Positions 2,870 to 24,338 of a stretch of DNA of 64,000 nt are shown here, in pieces (the stretch's first letter is position 1; each line of letters opens with the position of its first letter). This stretch comes from Candidatus Nanosyncoccus sp. (lineage in GTDB: Bacteria > Patescibacteriota > Saccharimonadia > Saccharimonadales > Saccharimonadaceae). A model generated the notes under the pieces. It was not told the origin of the DNA and made no database searches. It was given only the letters and a program-made list of their open reading frames with translations. The stretch spans positions 43,881 through 107,880 of the forward strand of contig JAZRRH010000013.1 of assembly GCA_045650525.1 (NCBI GenBank), written 5' to 3'. The translations under genes and the position numbers were made by a program.

Positions 2870-4753
2870 ATGACTTTAGATAAAAATAAAATTCGAAATG
2901 TGGCTATTATTGCGCATGTTGACCATGGTAAGACAACTTTGGTTGATGGGCTTTTGAAACAGTCGCATACTTTTCGCGACAATCAAGCAGAAATGTCGCA
3001 AACTTTGATCATGGATTCAATGGACCAGGAGCACGAACGCGGAATTACGATTACCGCCAAGCAAACCTGTGTTTATTACGATGGGTATAAAATTAATATT
3101 ATCGACACACCTGGGCACGCAGATTTTTCCGGTGAGGTAGAACGTACCCTAAATATGGCGGATGGCGTACTTCTTATCGTTGATGCGCAGGAAGGCCCGA
3201 TGCCTCAGACCAAATTCGTCCTGTCTAAGGCTCTAGATTTAGGCCTAAAGCCAGTGGTAGTAATTAACAAAATTGACAAACCTGCAGCGAGGATTCCGGA
3301 AGTTTTGTCAGAAATCGAATCGCTATTCTTGGAACTTGCAACAGATGAATCGCAGCTGTTTTATCCAGTTTACTATGCGATCGCTCGTGAAGGTAAAGCC
3401 GGCAAGACCACTGAACTCGATGACGATCTGCATGTGATTTTTGAGTCAATCATTAATGATATCCCAGCTCCGTCAGTGGATTCCGATTCCGATTCGGCAC
3501 AACTGCTCGTAGCTGCGCTAACCAGTGATAACTATCTCGGTAAATATTGTATCGGTAAAATTTTCCGTGGCAAGCTAAAAAAAGGACAGAGTGTTAGCAT
3601 TTTACATAAAACAACAAATTCATCATCCGAGGCAGTAAGACTTGGCCTAGCGGCCCGGAGCGCTGCCGAGGAGGATGGATTTGTTGTTTTGCGTGGAAAA
3701 ATTGAAAAACTGTTCATTTATAAGGGGCTTGGCAAGGAAGAGGTTTCCGAAGCAATTGCCGGGGATATTGTAGCCGTAACTGGTGTTTCGGAGGCGAACA
3801 TCGGTGACACTATCGCTACAGGTGACAAGCCTGAGGCTTTGCCAACAATTGAGCTTGAAGCTCCTACTCTTTCTATCTATATTGGCCCAAATACTTCACC
3901 ACTTAAGGGGCGTGAAGGCGAATTTACGACTTCACGACAAATCGCCGAAAGGCTCGAAAAAGAACTCGAGACCAACATTGCTCTTAAAATCCAGCCAGAT
4001 GGACTTGGCTACAAAGTGTCTGGCCGCGGTGAGCTGCATCTCTCAGTTTTGATTGAAACAATGCGACGCGAAGGCTACGAACTAGAAGCTGGTCGCCCAG
4101 AAGTGGTTTATCGTGACAACAATGGCGTGCAAGAAGAGCCAATTGAGTCACTTACCATCGAGGTTGATCCAGAATATGTCGGCGCTGTTTCGCAGGAACT
4201 AGGTATCCGTAAGGCCGAGCTAAAGACCCAGGAACTAACCTCTTCGGGCTCAACGAGGTTTGTCTATGAAATCTCTACCGCTGCCTTGATCGGTCTTAGG
4301 AATAATCTACTTACTGCTACCAAGGGTACAGTCATTATGTCTTCAATCCCATCGGGCTACCGACCGGTAGAAGGGAAATACCGTCCTGAGCGAAATGGCG
4401 CTCTTATATCCTTTGAAACTGGCGTCTCCACAGCCTATGCCCTCGATGCAGCCCAAGCCAGAGGAACTTTGTACATTCCACCTCAGGTAGATGTATATCA
4501 AGGTATGATCGTGGGGCTTTCAAACAAAAAAGATGATCTTGATATCAATGTTTGCCGCGAAAAACAGCTTACCAACATGCGTACGCATGCCTCTGATGGT
4601 GCAATTCAGCTCACTCCTTATACTCAGTTGTCTCTAGAGCAATGTCTAGACTTTCTCTTAGACGACGAGCTCTTAGAGGTCACACCAAAATCTTTGCGCC
4701 TACGTAAACGTCAACTCGACCCTATCAAACGAAAACGCGAAAACCGGGCATAA
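2870..4753 (+). CDS. typA: Translational GTPase TypA/BipA, carrying an in-frame hairpin insertion
   Basis: [31 protein letters not shown] and [11 protein letters not shown]. Confidence 0.97.
3608..3690 (+). repeat. In-frame palindromic insertion in typA
   Basis: AAAACAACAAATTCATC (3608-3624) pairs with GATGGATTTGTTGTTTT (3674-3690), one G-U; encodes [28 protein letters not shown]. Confidence 0.75.
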
Positions 4754-11984: not shown

Positions 11985-13208
11985 TTATTTTTGGAGGATT
12001 TTGGCGATTTTGTTTCTTAATTTGTTTTCTTCGGGGGCTCCTGCTAGGGTATCTACGCCAACGCGAAGTAGGCCAAGAGCTGTAGCATAAGAGTGGTCAA
12101 GGTCAAATTTTTCTTCGTTTGTGAGGTTTGGGAGCTCTGCGACGTCAATCAAGTGGATAACCGGGCGACGCGAAAACGCCAAAGATTTATACCAGTCAGA
12201 AACGGCAAGAGTTTCTTGGATCATAGATAAGCTAGCGCCACCGCCGCATAGTAGGATGTTTCGTGGGAGACTGCCGACGTTTTCGAATTCTTCGAGGGCC
12301 ACTTCTACGCCAGTCAACCATACGCTAAGGTTGCGCGAAAGGGCAGTTTCGACTTTGGCTTTGACACGATCGTCGAGCTTGGTTGTATCAAAATCTAGCT
12401 TGTATTGCTCGGCGGCTTCATGGTCAACACCGAGAGACTCCGCAACTTGATGAGTAAAGCTGCGGCCGCCAATAGAGAACATCTTGGTGCCTTCGACGCC
12501 GCCGTCCTCGACTACTGCAATATCGGTGGTGCCACCGCCAATATCCATAACTATGCCAGAAAAACTTGAATCAAGGTCGTCACCTAGACATGCACGGCAA
12601 ACAGCAAATGGCTCTACGGCAACAGTGAGAAGGTCGAGGTTTAGCTCGGCGCAAACTTTTTCGATGGCGGCCACATGAATAAGAGGAGCAAAAGCGGTAT
12701 AAAACTGAATTACGATATCTGAGCCTTTGAATCCGATGGGGTTGCTGATCTTGTATCCATCAATAATGAGGGAGACAATCGCGGAATTAATTAAGCGTAC
12801 TTCGACGTTTTCGTTGCCGGTTTCGAGTGCTACGGTTTTTTTTGCTACTTCGCCGGATTTTTGTTGGACTTTTTTGATAATTTCTTGCATTTCATTATCA
12901 GTGATAGGCTTGTTGGGGTTCTTGCGATTGTAGTGGACAGTGGTGGTTGAGCCTTTTATTAGCTCGCCTGCTACTCCAACTACAGTAAGATCGGCTTTTT
13001 CGCCGGCTTGTTTTTCTACTTTAATAAGAGCATCTTCACACACGTTGACTACAGCTGGAATATCAGAAATAGCGCCGCCCCACATATTGCCTTCGGCCTG
13101 CTTGGCTTTGGCAACACCTAAAACCTCAAGATCGCCTTTGCGATTTGGGCGCGCAAGGACAGCTTTGACGAATTCCGTGCCAATATCTAATCCTAGTATA
13201 GTGCTCAT
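11985..13208 (-). CDS. FtsA-like actin-fold ATPase
   Basis: LGLDIGTEFVKA, MDIGGGTTD and LCGGGA actin-fold motifs. Confidence 0.85.
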   Translation of the reverse strand: MSTILGLDIGTEFVKAVLARPNRKGDLEVLGVAKAKQAEGNMWGGAISDIPAVVNVCEDALIKVEKQAGEKADLTVVGVAGELIKGSTTTVHYNRKNPNKPITDNEMQEIIKKVQQKSGEVAKKTVALETGNENVEVRLINSAIVSLIIDGYKISNPIGFKGSDIVIQFYTAFAPLIHVAAIEKVCAELNLDLLTVAVEPFAVCRACLGDDLDSSFSGIVMDIGGGTTDIAVVEDGGVEGTKMFSIGGRSFTHQVAESLGVDHEAAEQYKLDFDTTKLDDRVKAKVETALSRNLSVWLTGVEVALEEFENVGSLPRNILLCGGGASLSMIQETLAVSDWYKSLAFSRRPVIHLIDVAELPNLTNEEKFDLDHSYATALGLLRVGVDTLAGAPEENKLRNKIAKILQK

Positions 13209-14023
13209 ACTTTTATTATATCATATTTACCGACGGGGATATCACCCAGTTCGTATTTGCCAAAATGAGTGCGGTGGAGCTTGGTGACTTTGTATCCTAA
13301 GGCCGCAAAAGTACGGCGGATTTGGCGGTTGCGGCCCTCGGTCAAAACTACCGTGTATTGAGCTGGCACCACCGTCTCTTTCGGGTCGCGTCCGGTCGGC
13401 CTGTTTGCCTTCGGCAATTCGCGTCCCAAGGGGCGAGCGCCACGGGCGGCCGGCGCTAACTCTCGCGCTGCCGCGCTCCGAAATCCCCTCAAGAGAGGTG
13501 ATGCCAGCTCATTCCTCAGAACTTTGAACTGGCTGGGGCCGTCGTCAAGCATGACGCCGTAATCTGAAATCATTTGTTGATGTAGTGGTTCCAAAGGTTT
13601 GTCAAGTTCAACTTCATAGATCTTGTTTTTGCGGAACTTTGGGTGGGTCATTTGATAGGCAAAATCGCCATCGTTAGTTAAAAGAATTAAGCCGGAAGAA
13701 TCTTTGTCGAGACGACCTACGGTTTTTAATTTGTGGTATTTCTTGGGCAGGATTTCATAAATGGTGGGGGCGGTTTTTTGTGAACGTCGCGAGCATACAT
13801 ATCCAACTGGTTTATGAAAAGCTAAATAAAGATATTCCGTATCAAACGGAATTATCTTGTTATTATAGCATACTTTGCTTGATTTGTCAATTCTATCCCC
13901 TAGGATCGCTTGGCGTCCGTCAACGGTGATTTGATTGGAGGATATCAATTCATCCGCTTCGCGCCTGGAGACACCTAATCGTTCGGCTAAGAATTTGTTC
14001 AGTCTAACCAGTGAGTTTTCCAT
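13205..14023 (-). CDS. S4-domain pseudouridine synthase (RluB/RsuA family) with an in-frame hairpin insertion
   Basis: RLNKFLA, SRREADELI, HKPVGY, VGRLDKDSSGL and EGRNRQIRR. Confidence 0.93.
   Translation of the reverse strand: MENSLVRLNKFLAERLGVSRREADELISSNQITVDGRQAILGDRIDKSSKVCYNNKIIPFDTEYLYLAFHKPVGYVCSRRSQKTAPTIYEILPKKYHKLKTVGRLDKDSSGLILLTNDGDFAYQMTHPKFRKNKIYEVELDKPLEPLHQQMISDYGVMLDDGPSQFKVLRNELASPLLRGFRSAAARELAPAARGARPLGRELPKANRPTGRDPKETVVPAQYTVVLTEGRNRQIRRTFAALGYKVTKLHRTHFGKYELGDIPVGKYDIIKV
13359..13511 (-). repeat. In-frame palindromic insertion (153 bp) in the pseudouridine synthase gene
   Basis: TGAGCTGGCACCACC...GGTGATGCCAGCTCA 15-bp IR with 1 mismatch; GC-rich; shares CGCGTCCCAAGGGGCG with the obgE insertion. 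Confidence 0.85.
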
Positions 14024-14033
14024 GAGGTTTTGA

Positions 14034-14585
14034 CTATGCTACTGGTGCTCCTGGCTGAGCTTCTACTGTTGCCGGAGCAGGAGCCGGAGCGGCTGGAGCT
14101 ACTGGGGTAGGAGCATGAGCGGCTGGAGCCGGAGCAGCTGGGGCTGGGGCGGCTGGAGCTGGGGCGGCTGGAGCCGGAGCGGCATTTAGCGCACCTGGTA
14201 TAGGTGCAGCTGCAACACGATCGCCCAAAGTTTCGTGAATAGTATTAATAACATCCTCGATGCCAACTTGTGATTTAACAAGATACTTATTGGCACCAAG
14301 ACGTTCGCCGCGTTGTCTCTGATCATCGGCAGAGAGGGCAGTCATCATGATAACCTTGATATTTGCGGTCTCTGGGGTTGATCGCAAAATATCCAGCATA
14401 TCAAACCCGGATATTTTTGGCATCATCACGTCGCTTAGAATTAAATCGGGTTTTTCGCGCACAGCAACAGCAAGTGCTTCTTCGCCATCTCCTGCTGATA
14501 CTACTTCGTAGCCTTCGGCGGTGATGCGGATACTGTAAATTTCTCGTAGGTTTGCGTCGTCTTCGACTACCATTACTTTACTCAT
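14034..14585 (-). CDS. Stand-alone response regulator receiver domain with a Pro/Ala tail
   Basis: VMVVEDD, LSDVMMP, MTA and KS receiver motifs; no output domain; GGAGG SD before ATG 14585. Confidence 0.9.
   Translation of the reverse strand: MSKVMVVEDDANLREIYSIRITAEGYEVVSAGDGEEALAVAVREKPDLILSDVMMPKISGFDMLDILRSTPETANIKVIMMTALSADDQRQRGERLGANKYLVKSQVGIEDVINTIHETLGDRVAAAPIPGALNAAPAPAAPAPAAPAPAAPAPAAHAPTPVAPAAPAPAPATVEAQPGAPVA
14071..14183 (-). repeat. Imperfect 15-nt tandem repeat encoding (APAAP)n
   Basis: Recurrent GGAGC/GGGGC-GGCTGG units. Confidence 0.75.
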
Positions 14586-16299
14586 TATTTCCTCCATTTA
14601 TTTTATTATCAATTGTTGGGGCTTGGTTCACCGGTGACACTGGCGGTGGTGTCGCCGAGCCTGGCGCTACAGGCTGTGCCGGCGGGGGTACTGGGGGTGC
14701 CGGCGATAAATTCGGAACTGTCGGGGTAACGTGAGCTGGAGTTGGAGTAGCTGCGGGAGCCATAGGAGTTGGTATAGGGGCGGGAGCTGGCGCCGCTTGA
14801 GTTACAGCTGGGGCAGCCGCGGGAGCCATCGGAGTAGGTGCGGCTGCGGGAGCCATCGGAGTAGGTGCGGCCGGGGTGGCCGGAGTCGGTGCGACTGGCG
14901 CTGTTGGAACAGGTGGTGTCACAGGAGTAGCTGGTGCGGCTGGGGCCATCGGAGCCGTAGGGGCAGCTGATGCGGCTGGGGCCATCGGGGCCACGGGGGC
15001 AACTGGGGCCGCAGGTGCCACCGGAGCTACCGGAGCAGCGGAAGCAATGAATGGATTTTCGGATGGCGGCTTAACCGGACCACCGATAAGCTGATTTTGA
15101 ATTTCTTGATTTTTTACCACAATCATGCGTTTTTCGTATTCGTCTGCAGTTAGACGCGGAAGGGAAACATAAAAGGTTGTTCCTTCACCAAAAGCGGACT
15201 CGGCCCAGACTTTGCCACCCATAGCTTCGACGCGTTGTTTTACTAGATAGAGGCCTAGGCCAGTGCCACCAATTGTCCTGGTGTCAGAATTATCGACGCG
15301 GTAGAATTTTTGGAAAATATGAGTAAGATCTTCGGCGGAAATCCCGATACCGGTATCGGTGACATTGATAAGTACACGGTCGCCGTCGCCACGCACATTC
15401 ACATAGACCGAACCACCCTCAGGGGTGTATTTGATAGCATTTTCAATTAGATTATCTACGATTTCTTGAAGGAAAGTAGTATCGACAAAACTATAAACGA
15501 CCTGTTGCATCTTGCGACCGGCCTCTACCGATGATTCGTTTGAGCCAAATGTGAGTGTGAGCTTGGATTCTTGAGCGTGCTGCATATGATTACTCGTGAT
15601 CGACTCAATTAATTCGGTCATTTCGACTGGCTCTAAGTGAAGCTTACTCTTGCCATCATCTAGCTTGGTGACATCTAGTAGGTCTTGGAATAGTTTGCCG
15701 AGATGTTTTGAAGCTTTTTCGGCAGCAGAAAGATAACCACGAGCGCGTTCGTCGATAGTGGCCGTCTGCGGATTCAGGGCCAAGGATAAATATCCATCAA
15801 TAGTTGCCACTGGGGTACGCATTTCGTGCGAGGCTGTAGAAATAAACTCGGTTTGCTCGCCTTCTTCTTCGAGTTCTTTGGTGATATCACGGAAGGTTAT
15901 AATACGGTCGGTATTCACCCCGTCGGTCTGGATGACAGAGATAGAGACAGGGAAACGTTTGTCCGAAGAAGTATTAATAAGTGAAGCCTGATAATGTTCG
16001 AGTGGCTGGTTGGTCTTGATTGCTTGGGTTAATTGGTTTTCTTGCTCGGAGAGCTCTCGACCCTCTTTACTCTCTAGTTTGATAACTAAGCCATAATCTA
16101 GCCCAACAGCGTTACTTGCTGAGCTAGTGCCAGTCATAAGAACTGCAGCAGGATTAATAAATTTAACGGCACCATTTTTGTCAATTATTACTACGCCATC
16201 GTGAAGTGATTTTAGGACCAAATCGGACATGGCAGAATTATTGCTATCGCCACCATTTGGCTGTCCGTTTGTGGTTTTATCGTGCTTAAACATTTTCAT
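14578..16299 (-). CDS. Cytoplasmic PAS sensor histidine kinase with a long Pro/Ala tail
   Basis: PAS-like N-terminus, ASHEMRTP (H box), NLIENAIKY, DTGIGI and GTGLGL; no TM. Confidence 0.92.
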   Translation of the reverse strand: MKMFKHDKTTNGQPNGGDSNNSAMSDLVLKSLHDGVVIIDKNGAVKFINPAAVLMTGTSSASNAVGLDYGLVIKLESKEGRELSEQENQLTQAIKTNQPLEHYQASLINTSSDKRFPVSISVIQTDGVNTDRIITFRDITKELEEEGEQTEFISTASHEMRTPVATIDGYLSLALNPQTATIDERARGYLSAAEKASKHLGKLFQDLLDVTKLDDGKSKLHLEPVEMTELIESITSNHMQHAQESKLTLTFGSNESSVEAGRKMQQVVYSFVDTTFLQEIVDNLIENAIKYTPEGGSVYVNVRGDGDRVLINVTDTGIGISAEDLTHIFQKFYRVDNSDTRTIGGTGLGLYLVKQRVEAMGGKVWAESAFGEGTTFYVSLPRLTADEYEKRMIVVKNQEIQNQLIGGPVKPPSENPFIASAAPVAPVAPAAPVAPVAPMAPAASAAPTAPMAPAAPATPVTPPVPTAPVAPTPATPAAPTPMAPAAAPTPMAPAAAPAVTQAAPAPAPIPTPMAPAATPTPAHVTPTVPNLSPAPPVPPPAQPVAPGSATPPPVSPVNQAPTIDNKINGGNNE

Positions 16300-19713: not shown

Positions 19714-20804
19714 CAAGACGCAAGAAGAAATTTGATTTTAGGAAAATTCAGAAGGCTTTGCCTTATTTGTTAACTGGTATCGTGACGCTAGCGGTTGTTT
19801 CTGTCGGCTCCATAGATAAACAAAATAGTGACGTCAACCTCAGTCTTGATTCTTTTGCAGCTAGCGACTATAACGTCTCTGTTGACCAGCTATCAGAGCT
19901 CTATGTTATTGCAGATCTATCTGATGCACTCAGCCTAGCTAGTGCCTCTGATGCCGCTTCCAACTACGTTATTACAAATACTATGTATAATGCTGGTATT
20001 TCGCTGGCTGGTAAGATAGAAAAACCAAGCCTTACCAATATTTCTGCTTCGCGTGGCGTAGTTGAGCATACAGTAGCCGAAGGTGAGACTATTGATACGC
20101 TCGCCTCAAAATACAACGTCTCTGCGGATCAGATACGTTGGTCTAACGGGCTCAAAACCACAGAGGTAGGAGTAGGTACAGTGCTTTATATCCCAAGTAG
20201 GCCTGGAATTGTTTATACCGTTAAATCTGGCGATACGATCGACTCTATCGTAGAAAAATATGGTTCGAATTCAGAAGAAATCATCGCTCTCAATGATTTG
20301 GAATTATCTGGTATTACTGAAGGGGCGAGAATCTTAATTAAAGATGGTACTCTGCCAGAAAAAGAACGCCCAGAATATGTGGCCCCTGTTGTACAGAGGA
20401 GGACTTCATCAAATTCATCAAGTTCGTCATATACCTATACCTATCTCGGTGACACCTCTGAGCGACAAAATATCCAAGTGGTAGGATACTATCGCATCGG
20501 ACACGGTCAATGTGTGGACTGGGCATCCTATATGAGGCCAGACCTCGGCGGATTGATGCTTGGCAACGCCAACGCTTGGGCGAGGAATGCCGCTGCTAGA
20601 GGATATTCTGTAAATCGTAGCCCTTCGGCTGGTGCGATTTTCCAGACTTCATCTGGTTGGTATGGTCACGTCGGTTATGTTGAAGCAGTCAACGGAGATG
20701 GCTCTATTACTGTAACAGAGATGAACTATAGCTATGTTCCTTATCGCGTGATTCGCGCAATTATTCCGGCGGATAAGGTGGGGAATTTTAACTATATCCA
20801 TTAA
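19710..20804 (+). CDS. LysM x2 plus CHAP domain peptidoglycan hydrolase
   Basis: HTVAEGETID and YTVKSGDTID LysM repeats; GQCVDW...GNANAW...GHVGYVE...EMNY CHAP motifs. Confidence 0.92.
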   Translation: MTRRKKKFDFRKIQKALPYLLTGIVTLAVVSVGSIDKQNSDVNLSLDSFAASDYNVSVDQLSELYVIADLSDALSLASASDAASNYVITNTMYNAGISLAGKIEKPSLTNISASRGVVEHTVAEGETIDTLASKYNVSADQIRWSNGLKTTEVGVGTVLYIPSRPGIVYTVKSGDTIDSIVEKYGSNSEEIIALNDLELSGITEGARILIKDGTLPEKERPEYVAPVVQRRTSSNSSSSSYTYTYLGDTSERQNIQVVGYYRIGHGQCVDWASYMRPDLGGLMLGNANAWARNAAARGYSVNRSPSAGAIFQTSSGWYGHVGYVEAVNGDGSITVTEMNYSYVPYRVIRAIIPADKVGNFNYIH

Positions 20805-20818
20805 ATATTGATGAAATA

Positions 20819-21002
20819 AAATCTCTTAACGCTATTTTTCGTTCGCGCTTCGCTTCGCTCCAGGAAAATCTTTATAAATTTTTTAACGGAAATTACTCGT
20901 GACTCACGTCTGCCTACGCGGTTCGCACGAGCTAATTTCCTAAAATTTATAAAGATTTTCTTGGGCTTGCTCAATGCTCACAAAAACAGAGTTAAGAGAT
21001 TT
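20819..21002. repeat. Intergenic nested palindrome (184 bp), homologous to the obgE/trmD insertions
   Basis: Nested IRs AAATCTCTTAAC/GTTAAGAGATTT, GAAAATCTTTATAAATTTT/AAAATTTATAAAGATTTTC, GGAAATTA/TAATTTCC and CTCGTG/CACGAG; the arms match the trmD element arms. Confidence 0.85.
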
Positions 21003-21006
21003 CATC

Positions 21007-22572
<1,566 letters not shown>

Positions 22573-23525: not shown

Positions 23526-24338
23526 ATGATTAAGTTTACAATAATTACACTATTTCGCGAGGCGATTGAGCCATATCTCAAGACCTCAATGATGTGGAAA
23601 GCCACCGAGAAGGGTCTTGCAGAGTTTGATTTCGTAAACCTGAGGGATTTTGGCCTGGGGCCACACAAATCCGTGGATGATGCGCCATACGGGGGTGGAG
23701 ACGGTATGCTTCTCCGGTGCGAGCCGGTTTTTGCCGCGATTGAATCAGTAAAAGCAAAAGACCCCGAGGTAAAGGTTATTCTACCTACCCCTGTAGGGGA
23801 GATATGGAACCAAGGGATGGCGAGAGAGTTCGCTGGGGGTCAGCCGGTAGATTTTGCAAACATTGAGCAAACCCGAGAAAAATCTGAGGAGGCTAGTCGA
23901 GACGAGTACGAAACTGGAATTTCGGCGCAGTCCCGATTAGTCGACGAAGATTTTTCCCGGAGTGCAGCGAAGCGTGAGCAAAATCTACCTACTGACCACT
24001 CTACCACTCACTACATCATCTTGTGTCCACACTATGAGGGGTACGATGAGAGGATTTTGTCGATCGTGGACTATAAAATTTCGCTTGGCAAATACGTTTT
24101 GACTGGGGGCGAGCTTCCAGCATTGATCATTATCGATTCCGTAGTGCGGCTTATCCCAGGGGTACTTGGCGGTGAACAGTCTGCCGAAATTGAGTCTTTT
24201 TCGGATGGAGATAACCTGGAATATCCGCAATATACTCGTCCAGAGGATTTTAGAGGGATGAAGGTGCCAGAGGTTCTTCTCTCGGGCAACCATGGCGAAA
24301 TCGCTAAATGGCGCGAGGAGCATAGTGGGACTGTTTGA
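23526..24338 (+). CDS. trmD: tRNA (guanine-N1)-methyltransferase TrmD with an in-frame hairpin insertion
   Basis: TLF, VDDAPYGGGDGM, YEGYDERI, YVLTGGE, RLIPGVLG, YPQYTRP and VPEVLLSGNH. Confidence 0.96.
   Translation: MIKFTIITLFREAIEPYLKTSMMWKATEKGLAEFDFVNLRDFGLGPHKSVDDAPYGGGDGMLLRCEPVFAAIESVKAKDPEVKVILPTPVGEIWNQGMAREFAGGQPVDFANIEQTREKSEEASRDEYETGISAQSRLVDEDFSRSAAKREQNLPTDHSTTHYIILCPHYEGYDERILSIVDYKISLGKYVLTGGELPALIIIDSVVRLIPGVLGGEQSAEIESFSDGDNLEYPQYTRPEDFRGMKVPEVLLSGNHGEIAKWREEHSGTV
23838..23997 (+). repeat. In-frame palindromic insertion in trmD (family A)
   Basis: GGTCAG-CC-GGTAGATTTTGC...GCAAAATCTACC-TA-CTGACC; the 144-bp core 23846-23989 has a perfect 12-bp IR. Confidence 0.92.

Follow-up and report, generated by a model that had tools for sequence, protein, structure and literature searches.

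Why would a gene for an rRNA pseudouridine synthase carry, a few codons before one of its conserved motifs, a palindrome that is much richer in G+C than the gene around it? The gene belongs to Candidatus Nanosyncoccus (Saccharibacteria) from the ruminant gut, as given by database names and locus titles. It lies in a stretch of 64,000 nucleotides, which was analysed as a whole and is called the window here. The host gene occupies positions 13205-14023 on the minus strand and encodes 272 aa. Its open reading frame, Pfam matches and solved relatives place it in the RsuA/RluB family of rRNA pseudouridine synthases. Both the S4 domain (PF01479) and the PseudoU_synth_2 domain (PF00849) were detected past the curated Pfam cut-offs (1.5e-19 and 1.6e-06). 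The top solved relatives of the protein were E. coli RluB (4LAB, 4e-29), RsuA and RluF, and orthologs carry the database name 'rRNA pseudouridine synthase [Candidatus Saccharibacteria]'. R104-L105-D106 of the GRLD Asp motif and E229...R237 of the EGRNRQIRR motif were invariant among 55 orthologs. All four marks of the family (S4, PseudoU_synth_2, the GRLD Asp motif and EGRNRQIRR) are present in the host gene, and the insert ends 6 residues before EGRNRQIRR.

The palindromic element runs from inverted repeat to inverted repeat over 13359-13511 (minus strand), as delimited by the repeat, by folding and by the gap in the sister ortholog L001. It measures 153 nt, or 51 codons, and corresponds to residues ~171-222. 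The terminal inverted repeat pairs TGAGCTGGCACCACC at 13359-13373 with GGTGATGCCAGCTCA at 13497-13511, with 14 of the 15 pairs being Watson-Crick and one G:T. Inside it lies a TCTCTT/AAGAGA pair, at 13375-13385 and 13486-13496. The G+C content of the element is 0.67-0.68, compared with 0.38-0.44 in the flanks of the gene and 0.443 in the whole window. These features had been listed by the initial annotation, together with a 16-mer and an AGGGG(A)TTTCGG motif shared with obgE, and all were recovered at their positions. RNA folding, which had been suggested as a check, bore out the hairpin: positions 13340-13530 folded at -90.8 kcal/mol (z = -4.5), a value equalled by none of 200 shuffles. Folded as single-stranded DNA, the two strands of the element gave z = -4.0 and -3.7 (0/200 shuffles each). 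The insert translates in frame and stop-free as NELASP...VVPAQ, a peptide rich in Arg, Ala, Pro and Gly. Peptides predicted from it include GFRSAAAR and the tryptic ELAPAAR and ETVVPAQYTVVLTEGR.

The hairpin is built in layers. The outer stem is private to this copy: its 5' arm in gene sense, GAGCTGGCATCACC (13497-13510, minus strand, codons E-L-A-S-P), pairs as an inverted repeat with the 3' arm GGTGGTGCCAGCTC (13360-13373, minus strand, codons V-V-P-A-Q), and its GAGCTGG is common to the ortholog P0004/L085. The next layer is an exchangeable unit at 13370-13501 (minus strand). It consists of an inner stem, TCTCTTGAGGGG / CCCGAAAGAGA, and a three-way-junction core, and was recognized by a match to the ortholog P0006 at 97 of 99 positions, not counting the tip module. 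Within the core, hairpin A (13462-13480, minus strand; CGGAGCGCGGCAGCGCGAG) has a GCGC stem and a GGCA loop, as predicted by folding, and its pairs covary in 17 copies at the same site. Hairpin B (13388-13456, minus strand) was delimited by folding and comparison. Its arms lie at 13438-13456 and 13388-13404, with a nested module of 33 nt, CTCGCCCCTTGGGACGCGAATTGCCGAAGGCAA (13405-13437, minus strand), interrupting the tip. This module, which the P0006 copy lacks, supplies 11 codons (...RPLGRELPKA...) and includes the 16-mer. The same general plan was found across copies: an outer stem (12-25 bp) that is peculiar to its site and species; an inner-stem layer resembling CCTCTTTCGAGGGG...CCCCGAGAAAGAGG; and a Y-shaped core of hairpin A (GCGC-GGCA-GCGC) and hairpin B, with an extra module at a hairpin tip in some copies. 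The sequence of the outer stem differs in every species, with its complementarity kept. The hairpin A motif anchors 58 copies of the type that we call T1.

The claim that the segment was inserted and does not belong to the ancestral protein had been made before and is upheld by the ortholog alignment. The match with E. coli RluB covers residues 7-170 and 222-259; between them, the E. coli enzyme has 9 residues in contrast to the 51 of the host protein. The segment is absent from distant RluB homologs, in which its conservation, in the sense intended by the initial annotation, would have spoken against an insertion. An AlphaFold2 model from a 55-sequence alignment reproduced the core fold (mean pLDDT 73), with pLDDT below 50 at residues 174-217, between predicted strands at 167-170 and 221-227. 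The site was compared among orthologs from 80 species-level genomes, all of which (80/80) have a single open frame across it. A bare turn of ~14 aa, TVIKDGNKYIVTLT, was present in 39 of them and a short GP(A/V)E scar in 4. The other 37 are longer by 24-61 residues at precisely this turn, and the frame is kept in every case. The DNA of the filled orthologs mostly folds at -40 to -91 kcal/mol, and a few inserts are weak (e.g., L026 and L041, ~-23).

Occupancy of the turn is patchy among the Nanosyncoccus orthologs, and the inserts are of several unrelated sequence types. In a gene tree built from insert-masked proteins, the sister of the window gene is L001 (support 99/91). The two masked proteins are 89% identical; L001 is insert-free, and pairwise alignment of the genes leaves a 153-nt gap at the element. 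Six more sister pairs combine a filled with an empty allele. At least 10 changes between empty and filled are forced by well-supported branches, and the insert type contradicts the gene tree. No direct repeat flanks the rluB copy, where the closest empty allele has only ~80% DNA identity and does not fix the junction exactly. Direct duplications of host codons were seen beside some inserts at a site in Obg (L019, L036, L066).

The element is one of a dispersed family. A blastn search with 17 insert cores against the window and the 80 loci (1.55 Mb) returned 152 related regions, 146 of which (96%) lie wholly within stop-free ORFs of >=120 aa. In the sampled loci the density is about one copy in 10 kb, and copy numbers of whole genomes are extrapolated from it. 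The hosts are Obg (two sites), MnmA, RluB, TrmD, an IscS-like desulfurase, AlaRS, TatD, UvrB, TypA, a histidine kinase and RuvX-MltG, that is at least 11 gene families, and the list reflects the loci sampled, which are conserved genes of the rluB neighbourhood. The proposed kinship to the insert in obgE (22105-22260, minus strand) was upheld by a core match. The two belong to the same core superfamily, of which the obgE copy is a T4 variant, and share the same tip module, present there as the other subtype (22148-22188). The further link to a second family through an RSAA motif did not hold up: just ~8-9 nt (CGGAGCGC) are common, and the 17 core queries gave no blastn match to the inserts obgE-2, trmD and typA, which have 45-51% G+C.

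The conserved entity in this family is a nucleic-acid fold and not a peptide. T1-type cores occur in both orientations, and all six of their frames are used, yielding unrelated peptides, e.g., GFRSAAARELAPAARGDGPAGRDPE, SGPRPSGPSPRADGANSRAAALRNAP, ASEPRNDGRERSGSRK and TERPSPVTTGARERSENDG. In the copy of L078, which is read in the frame that contains a TAG in the reference core, the stop is lost. In the alignment of the 17 rluB-site copies, 93% of cells were paired, compared with 39-49% when the partners were slid, and compensatory double changes occurred in 28 of 36 pairs. Double-change cells numbered 125, against 14-23 in the slid controls, and the observed values were attained in 0 of 500 shuffles. 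The covariation acts at the nucleotide level and includes pairs across codon positions.

We therefore read the rluB segment, with a probability of about 80%, as a GC-rich palindromic selfish element in a surface beta-hairpin turn, in frame and translated as a tolerated, disordered loop, and comparable to the Rickettsia palindromic elements (RPE). The universal open frame, free of stop codons, suggests read-through: the element would be transcribed and translated with its gene, giving a loop of 48-51 residues that is predicted to be disordered. Its spread and upkeep may take place on folded single-stranded DNA during replication. Insertion at a hairpin tip would be one such replication-time step, and template switching may extend and perfect the stems into the adjoining host codons. 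Inversion could occur between the arms of an element. Homologous recombination between lineages may additionally spread filled alleles, and selection would purge copies that break the frame or the fold.

Comparison with two orthologs shows how the rluB copy was assembled. P0004 is 87.1% identical to the window gene outside the element and only 54.5% identical within it, where a T2 core sits inside the same outermost stem, GAGCTGG...CCAGCTC. P0006 is 68.9% identical outside the element, but its inner stem and core are identical at 97 of 99 positions (98%). From these two comparisons, occupancy of the site and the private stem are old, the core has recently been exchanged between lineages, and the tip module is newest. 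The rluB copy is thus a stack of three nested layers of different age. The earlier description as a recent insertion applies to the inner stem with its core and to the 33-nt module; it does not apply to the site, which has long been occupied, or to the outermost stem, which is common to P0004.

The 33-nt segment in the tip of hairpin B is the sole real difference between the rluB element and its P0006 counterpart. Of the 16-mer that it includes, CGCGTCCCAAGGGGCG, the window has exactly two copies, one at 13420-13435 and the other, within the obgE insert, at 22167-22182 (blastn E = 0.002 in 64 kb). Both copies translate as RPLGR, and AGGGG(A)TTTCGG is found in both inserts. With up to two mismatches the motif has 10 matches in the 1.55 Mb, and at least 8 of these are at or beside hairpin tips of recognizable elements. 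The tip module exists in two subtypes, in which a second mini-hairpin covaries (UUGCC-GAA-GGCAA versus GACCC-GAA-GGGUC).

Replacement of cores was also seen between sister genomes. L005 has a T1 core where L011 has T2, and L006 has T1 where L069 and L070 have T5. The flanks of L006 and L069 are near-identical by eye in the alignment, whereas their inserts are unrelated. In both L006/L069 and L005/L011 the divergent tract extends ~25-35 nt past the hairpin, which suggests that whole filled alleles were imported by homologous recombination. Such recombination of filled alleles, and not new insertions, could account for much of the patchy distribution on the gene tree. L016 has the L008 type of core in reverse complement within a homologous outer stem, which means that the core has flipped between its arms. 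The rluB of L004 and a different gene of L016 have a 75-nt core in common, with 100% identity. Of the T5 element present in its sister L013, L019 retains just the 3' end, as a deletion scar. In L047 a T1 left end is joined to a T5 right end.

The private stems appear to be drawn in part from the host gene. Beyond the shared core, the two flanks of a copy form a duplex with a mean energy of -29.0 kcal/mol, compared with -16.7 kcal/mol for flanks taken from different copies. In TrmD, the 5' arm consists of AREFA, a host sequence that empty alleles also have, and the complementary 3' arm LSANS is new. At the Obg site, the 3' arm corresponds to host LADL codons, the pairing there having been read apart from the allele comparison. 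In the rluB copy, complementarity past the 15-bp repeat is ~8/15, and only the first GAG codon is plausibly of host origin.

Orientation and stability of the copies follow the chromosome. Of the 58 T1 copies, 46 are oriented like the rluB strand, among them 28 of the 40 in genes on the opposite strand, the copies being kin by descent. In 90 of 113 copies the more stable fold is that of the rluB-sense strand, with a mean difference of -5.1 kcal/mol (Wilcoxon p = 3e-9, nominal because the copies are related). The mRNA strand has no such preference (60 versus 53, nominal p = 0.73), and is the less stable one in minus-strand genes, by a mean of 4.1 kcal/mol. GC skew of the rluB-sense strand is negative at 76 of the 80 loci and in the window too. 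Descent makes the orientation and stability counts non-independent, and the stability asymmetry may restate the orientation bias. An asymmetry that tracks the chromosome strand and not transcription argues for a single-stranded, replication-linked process on DNA and against a function in the mRNA.

A more specific version of this process is tentative, and we hold it to be possible but doubtful. The elements would be self-propagating hairpins and not transposase-driven MITEs. They would grow and spread by replication-linked template switching on one chromosome strand, by insertion at tips, which would nest module in core and core in private stem like Russian dolls, by stems made from backward-copied host codons and by flipping between arms, with the same permissive turns re-colonised from stem scars. 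If this were true, they would be a counterpart, in protein-coding DNA, of the growth of rRNA expansion segments, and a new way of adding loops to essential proteins in ultra-small genomes.

The same evidence bears on the chance that the insert is kept for a function as a structured mRNA module, acting in stability, in binding of a nuclease or protein, as a translational pause or as the source of a small RNA. Selection on RNA would also yield the very strong covariation, the significant RNA fold and the high conservation of core sequences across species whose genes have diverged. Copies are, however, found in either orientation relative to the host transcripts, and the stabler strand is set by the chromosome, to the disadvantage of the mRNA strand in minus-strand genes. 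The insert is absent from the sister species, the same turn is filled by unrelated sequence families, and Rfam at permissive thresholds (E up to 10) gave no family, intron or ribozyme match for 13250-13620. We consider such a module unlikely.

Peptide-level selection for an adaptive, lineage-specific, Arg-rich RNA-binding loop, to which the hairpin would be incidental, is very improbable. The peptide is rich in Arg and Lys, many of the hosts bind RNA or ribosomes (RluB, Obg, TypA, TrmD, MnmA, AlaRS), and insertions of this kind can be co-opted. But one DNA is read in six frames as unrelated peptides, and the hosts also include TatD, UvrB, the IscS-like enzyme and the histidine kinase. Sister species can differ in whether they have the insert, its core is replaced within a gene that is 87% identical, and the loop is predicted to be disordered. 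The covariation of the stems at the nucleotide level, across codon positions too, is likewise not what a peptide would require.

The least probable alternative is that the mature enzyme lacks the insert, an intervening sequence that would be taken out either of the transcript, by excision of the hairpin and re-ligation, or of the protein, in the manner of an intein: CPR bacteria do have intervening sequences in their rRNA genes and the base of the long stem would juxtapose both junctions, but an excised RNA needs neither the one open frame of all 80 orthologs nor the uninterrupted ORFs around 146 of 152 copies, copies in the TAG-bearing frame (e.g., L078) have lost the stop, 51 residues are far below intein size and contain, on reading the sequence, no Cys/Ser...His-Asn intein blocks, and Rfam matched no intron or ribozyme.

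Two further candidates were rejected. For phages as vectors, a scan of viral contigs with the 19-nt hairpin A motif gave 3 matches; all are chance matches in GC-rich phage genes without the architecture of the element. An assembly artefact was dismissed since dozens of independent MAGs have this architecture.

The reading as a translated selfish palindrome can be set against known systems. RPE-1 to RPE-10 (Ogata et al. 2000/2002) are in-frame palindromic repeats, about half of them intragenic, and each is said to encode a conserved peptide, according to the MITE review PMC10969869. Measured against that account, the Nanosyncoccus elements are alike in being palindromic repeats of ~100-150 bp with many dispersed copies in the reduced genome of a host-dependent bacterium. 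They also resemble RPEs in lying in frame in unrelated housekeeping genes, without inactivating them and with an added peptide compatible with the fold. They differ from the RPEs of the same account in being GC-rich in a genome of 44% G+C, in having 96% of the detected copies intragenic, compared with about half, and in encoding no conserved peptide, with six frames in use. They further differ in the outer stem that is private to each site and partly made of host codons, in the swapping and flipping of cores within the same stem, in the nesting of modules in tips and in an orientation that tracks the chromosome strand. Their bearer is a Saccharibacterium, of the CPR phylum, and for this reason they are called an analogue of the RPEs described there and not a member; the two are not known to be related in sequence. 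The Nanosyncoccus elements are probably a family of translated palindromic elements that is RPE-like yet distinct. A search of the full-text literature found no published description of such elements in Saccharibacteria.

MITEs are typically AT-rich, mostly intergenic and derived from IS elements, with family-wide terminal inverted repeats and target-site duplications (PMC10969869). Intragenic members and similar repeats, namely Coxiella QMITE1, intragenic ERIC and BOX (PMC10969869), resemble our elements as short, non-autonomous repeats with stable stem-loops and possible in-frame ORF fusions. Unlike in a classical MITE, the terminal stems of the Nanosyncoccus elements differ at every site, and only the inner stem and core are common. 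No duplication is visible at the rluB site, where the nearest empty allele is too divergent to place the exact junction.

The best mechanistic analogy for the chromosome-strand bias is provided by REPs and REPINs. These are GC-rich imperfect palindromes that are mobilised by RAYT transposases (IS200/IS605-like, Y1 HUH), act as folded single-stranded DNA and are strand-linked. REPs are extragenic by definition, with units of ~20-40 nt and a conserved 5' tetranucleotide tag. The Nanosyncoccus elements, in contrast, are 96% intragenic, larger and branched. The GC clusters of yeast mitochondria are optional elements of ~30-50 bp that occur in frame in var1 and spread between alleles by non-reciprocal recombination. 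They share with our elements the GC-rich palindromic form, the optional presence in an AT-richer genome and the possibility of lying in frame, but they are organellar and much shorter. We know of no private stems or nested modules described for them.

If the reading as selfish elements is right, essential enzymes (the rRNA pseudouridine synthase, Obg, TrmD, MnmA and AlaRS) carry repeated selfish insertions of 25-60 residues at the same surface turns. Their hosts have some of the smallest bacterial genomes known, and the evolving unit would be a DNA hairpin and not a peptide. This would be an independent and much denser case of selfish DNA in protein-coding genes, comparable with that in Rickettsia. 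The private stems, core swapping, tip nesting and strand bias point to a mechanism on single-stranded DNA. In practice, the inserts inflate protein lengths and may mislead ortholog alignments and gene trees, and they serve as markers of recombination among uncultured lineages.

Turns in Obg and TrmD behave like the one in RluB. Their empty alleles read GTVVKKDGEIIADL and AREFAKDAHYIIL, respectively, and each of the two sites is filled by at least 8 unrelated families. As a minor observation, which with three sites in a Lys-rich, AT-rich genome does not count as evidence, the empty RluB, Obg and TrmD alleles all have AAA GAY G/A (K-D-G/A).

Four further large hairpin elements were found in the window (3608-3690, 20801-21020, 21253-21446 and 23838-23997), all less GC-rich, with a G+C content of 36-51% and folding energies from -45 to -89 kcal/mol. 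Three of the four lie in frame within genes, namely typA, trmD and a second site of obgE, and one is intergenic. In blastn searches, none matched any of the 17 insert cores used as queries. These hairpins represent families other than that of the rluB element. The region's other GC-rich islands (14032-14238 and 14605-15087) are long Pro/Ala-rich low-complexity tracts (PAPAAPAPAA...), not hairpin elements. The tracts lie within or end both a response regulator (14034-14597) and a histidine kinase (14578-16299), whose minus-strand ORFs are located upstream of rluB and overlap by 20 nt.

Copies within single genomes were found among the loci from the species-level relatives. L009 carries a second copy of its unusual type of rluB element (L009:16872-16971), 92% identical, in opposite orientation, 6 kb from the first and not within any long ORF. 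The outer stem is partly common to both copies (GGAAGAAAAA), so the mobile unit can include stem sequence. L017 has two copies of the core variant T4, one in obg (L017:2047-2154) and one in rluB (L017:10511-10654), which share 92% identity across 108 nt. At its end the rluB copy reads ...RSFLAK, similar to the host LLAD codons of Obg; this suggests that it derived from the Obg copy plus a few host nucleotides. Two copies in L002 (L002:1247-1375 and L002:16332-16470) are composites of 127-136 nt, with one tip module following hairpin A and another within hairpin B. The double modules indicate that nesting is possible more than once per element.

The empty turns of RluB, Obg and TrmD, where other species have elements, all contained AAA GAY G/A (K-D-G/A; 3/3). 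It could be a target motif, or merely a common turn sequence of a Lys-rich genome. At the peptide level, some Obg-site inserts lay between directly duplicated host codons. L036 reads LLADLTTDGAE...LLADLTKDGAE, L066 reads LLADPTRDG...LLADLTHDG and, either side of a GPVE scar, L019 has KKNLIA...KKNLIA. Such repeats resemble tandem re-insertions or long target-site duplications.
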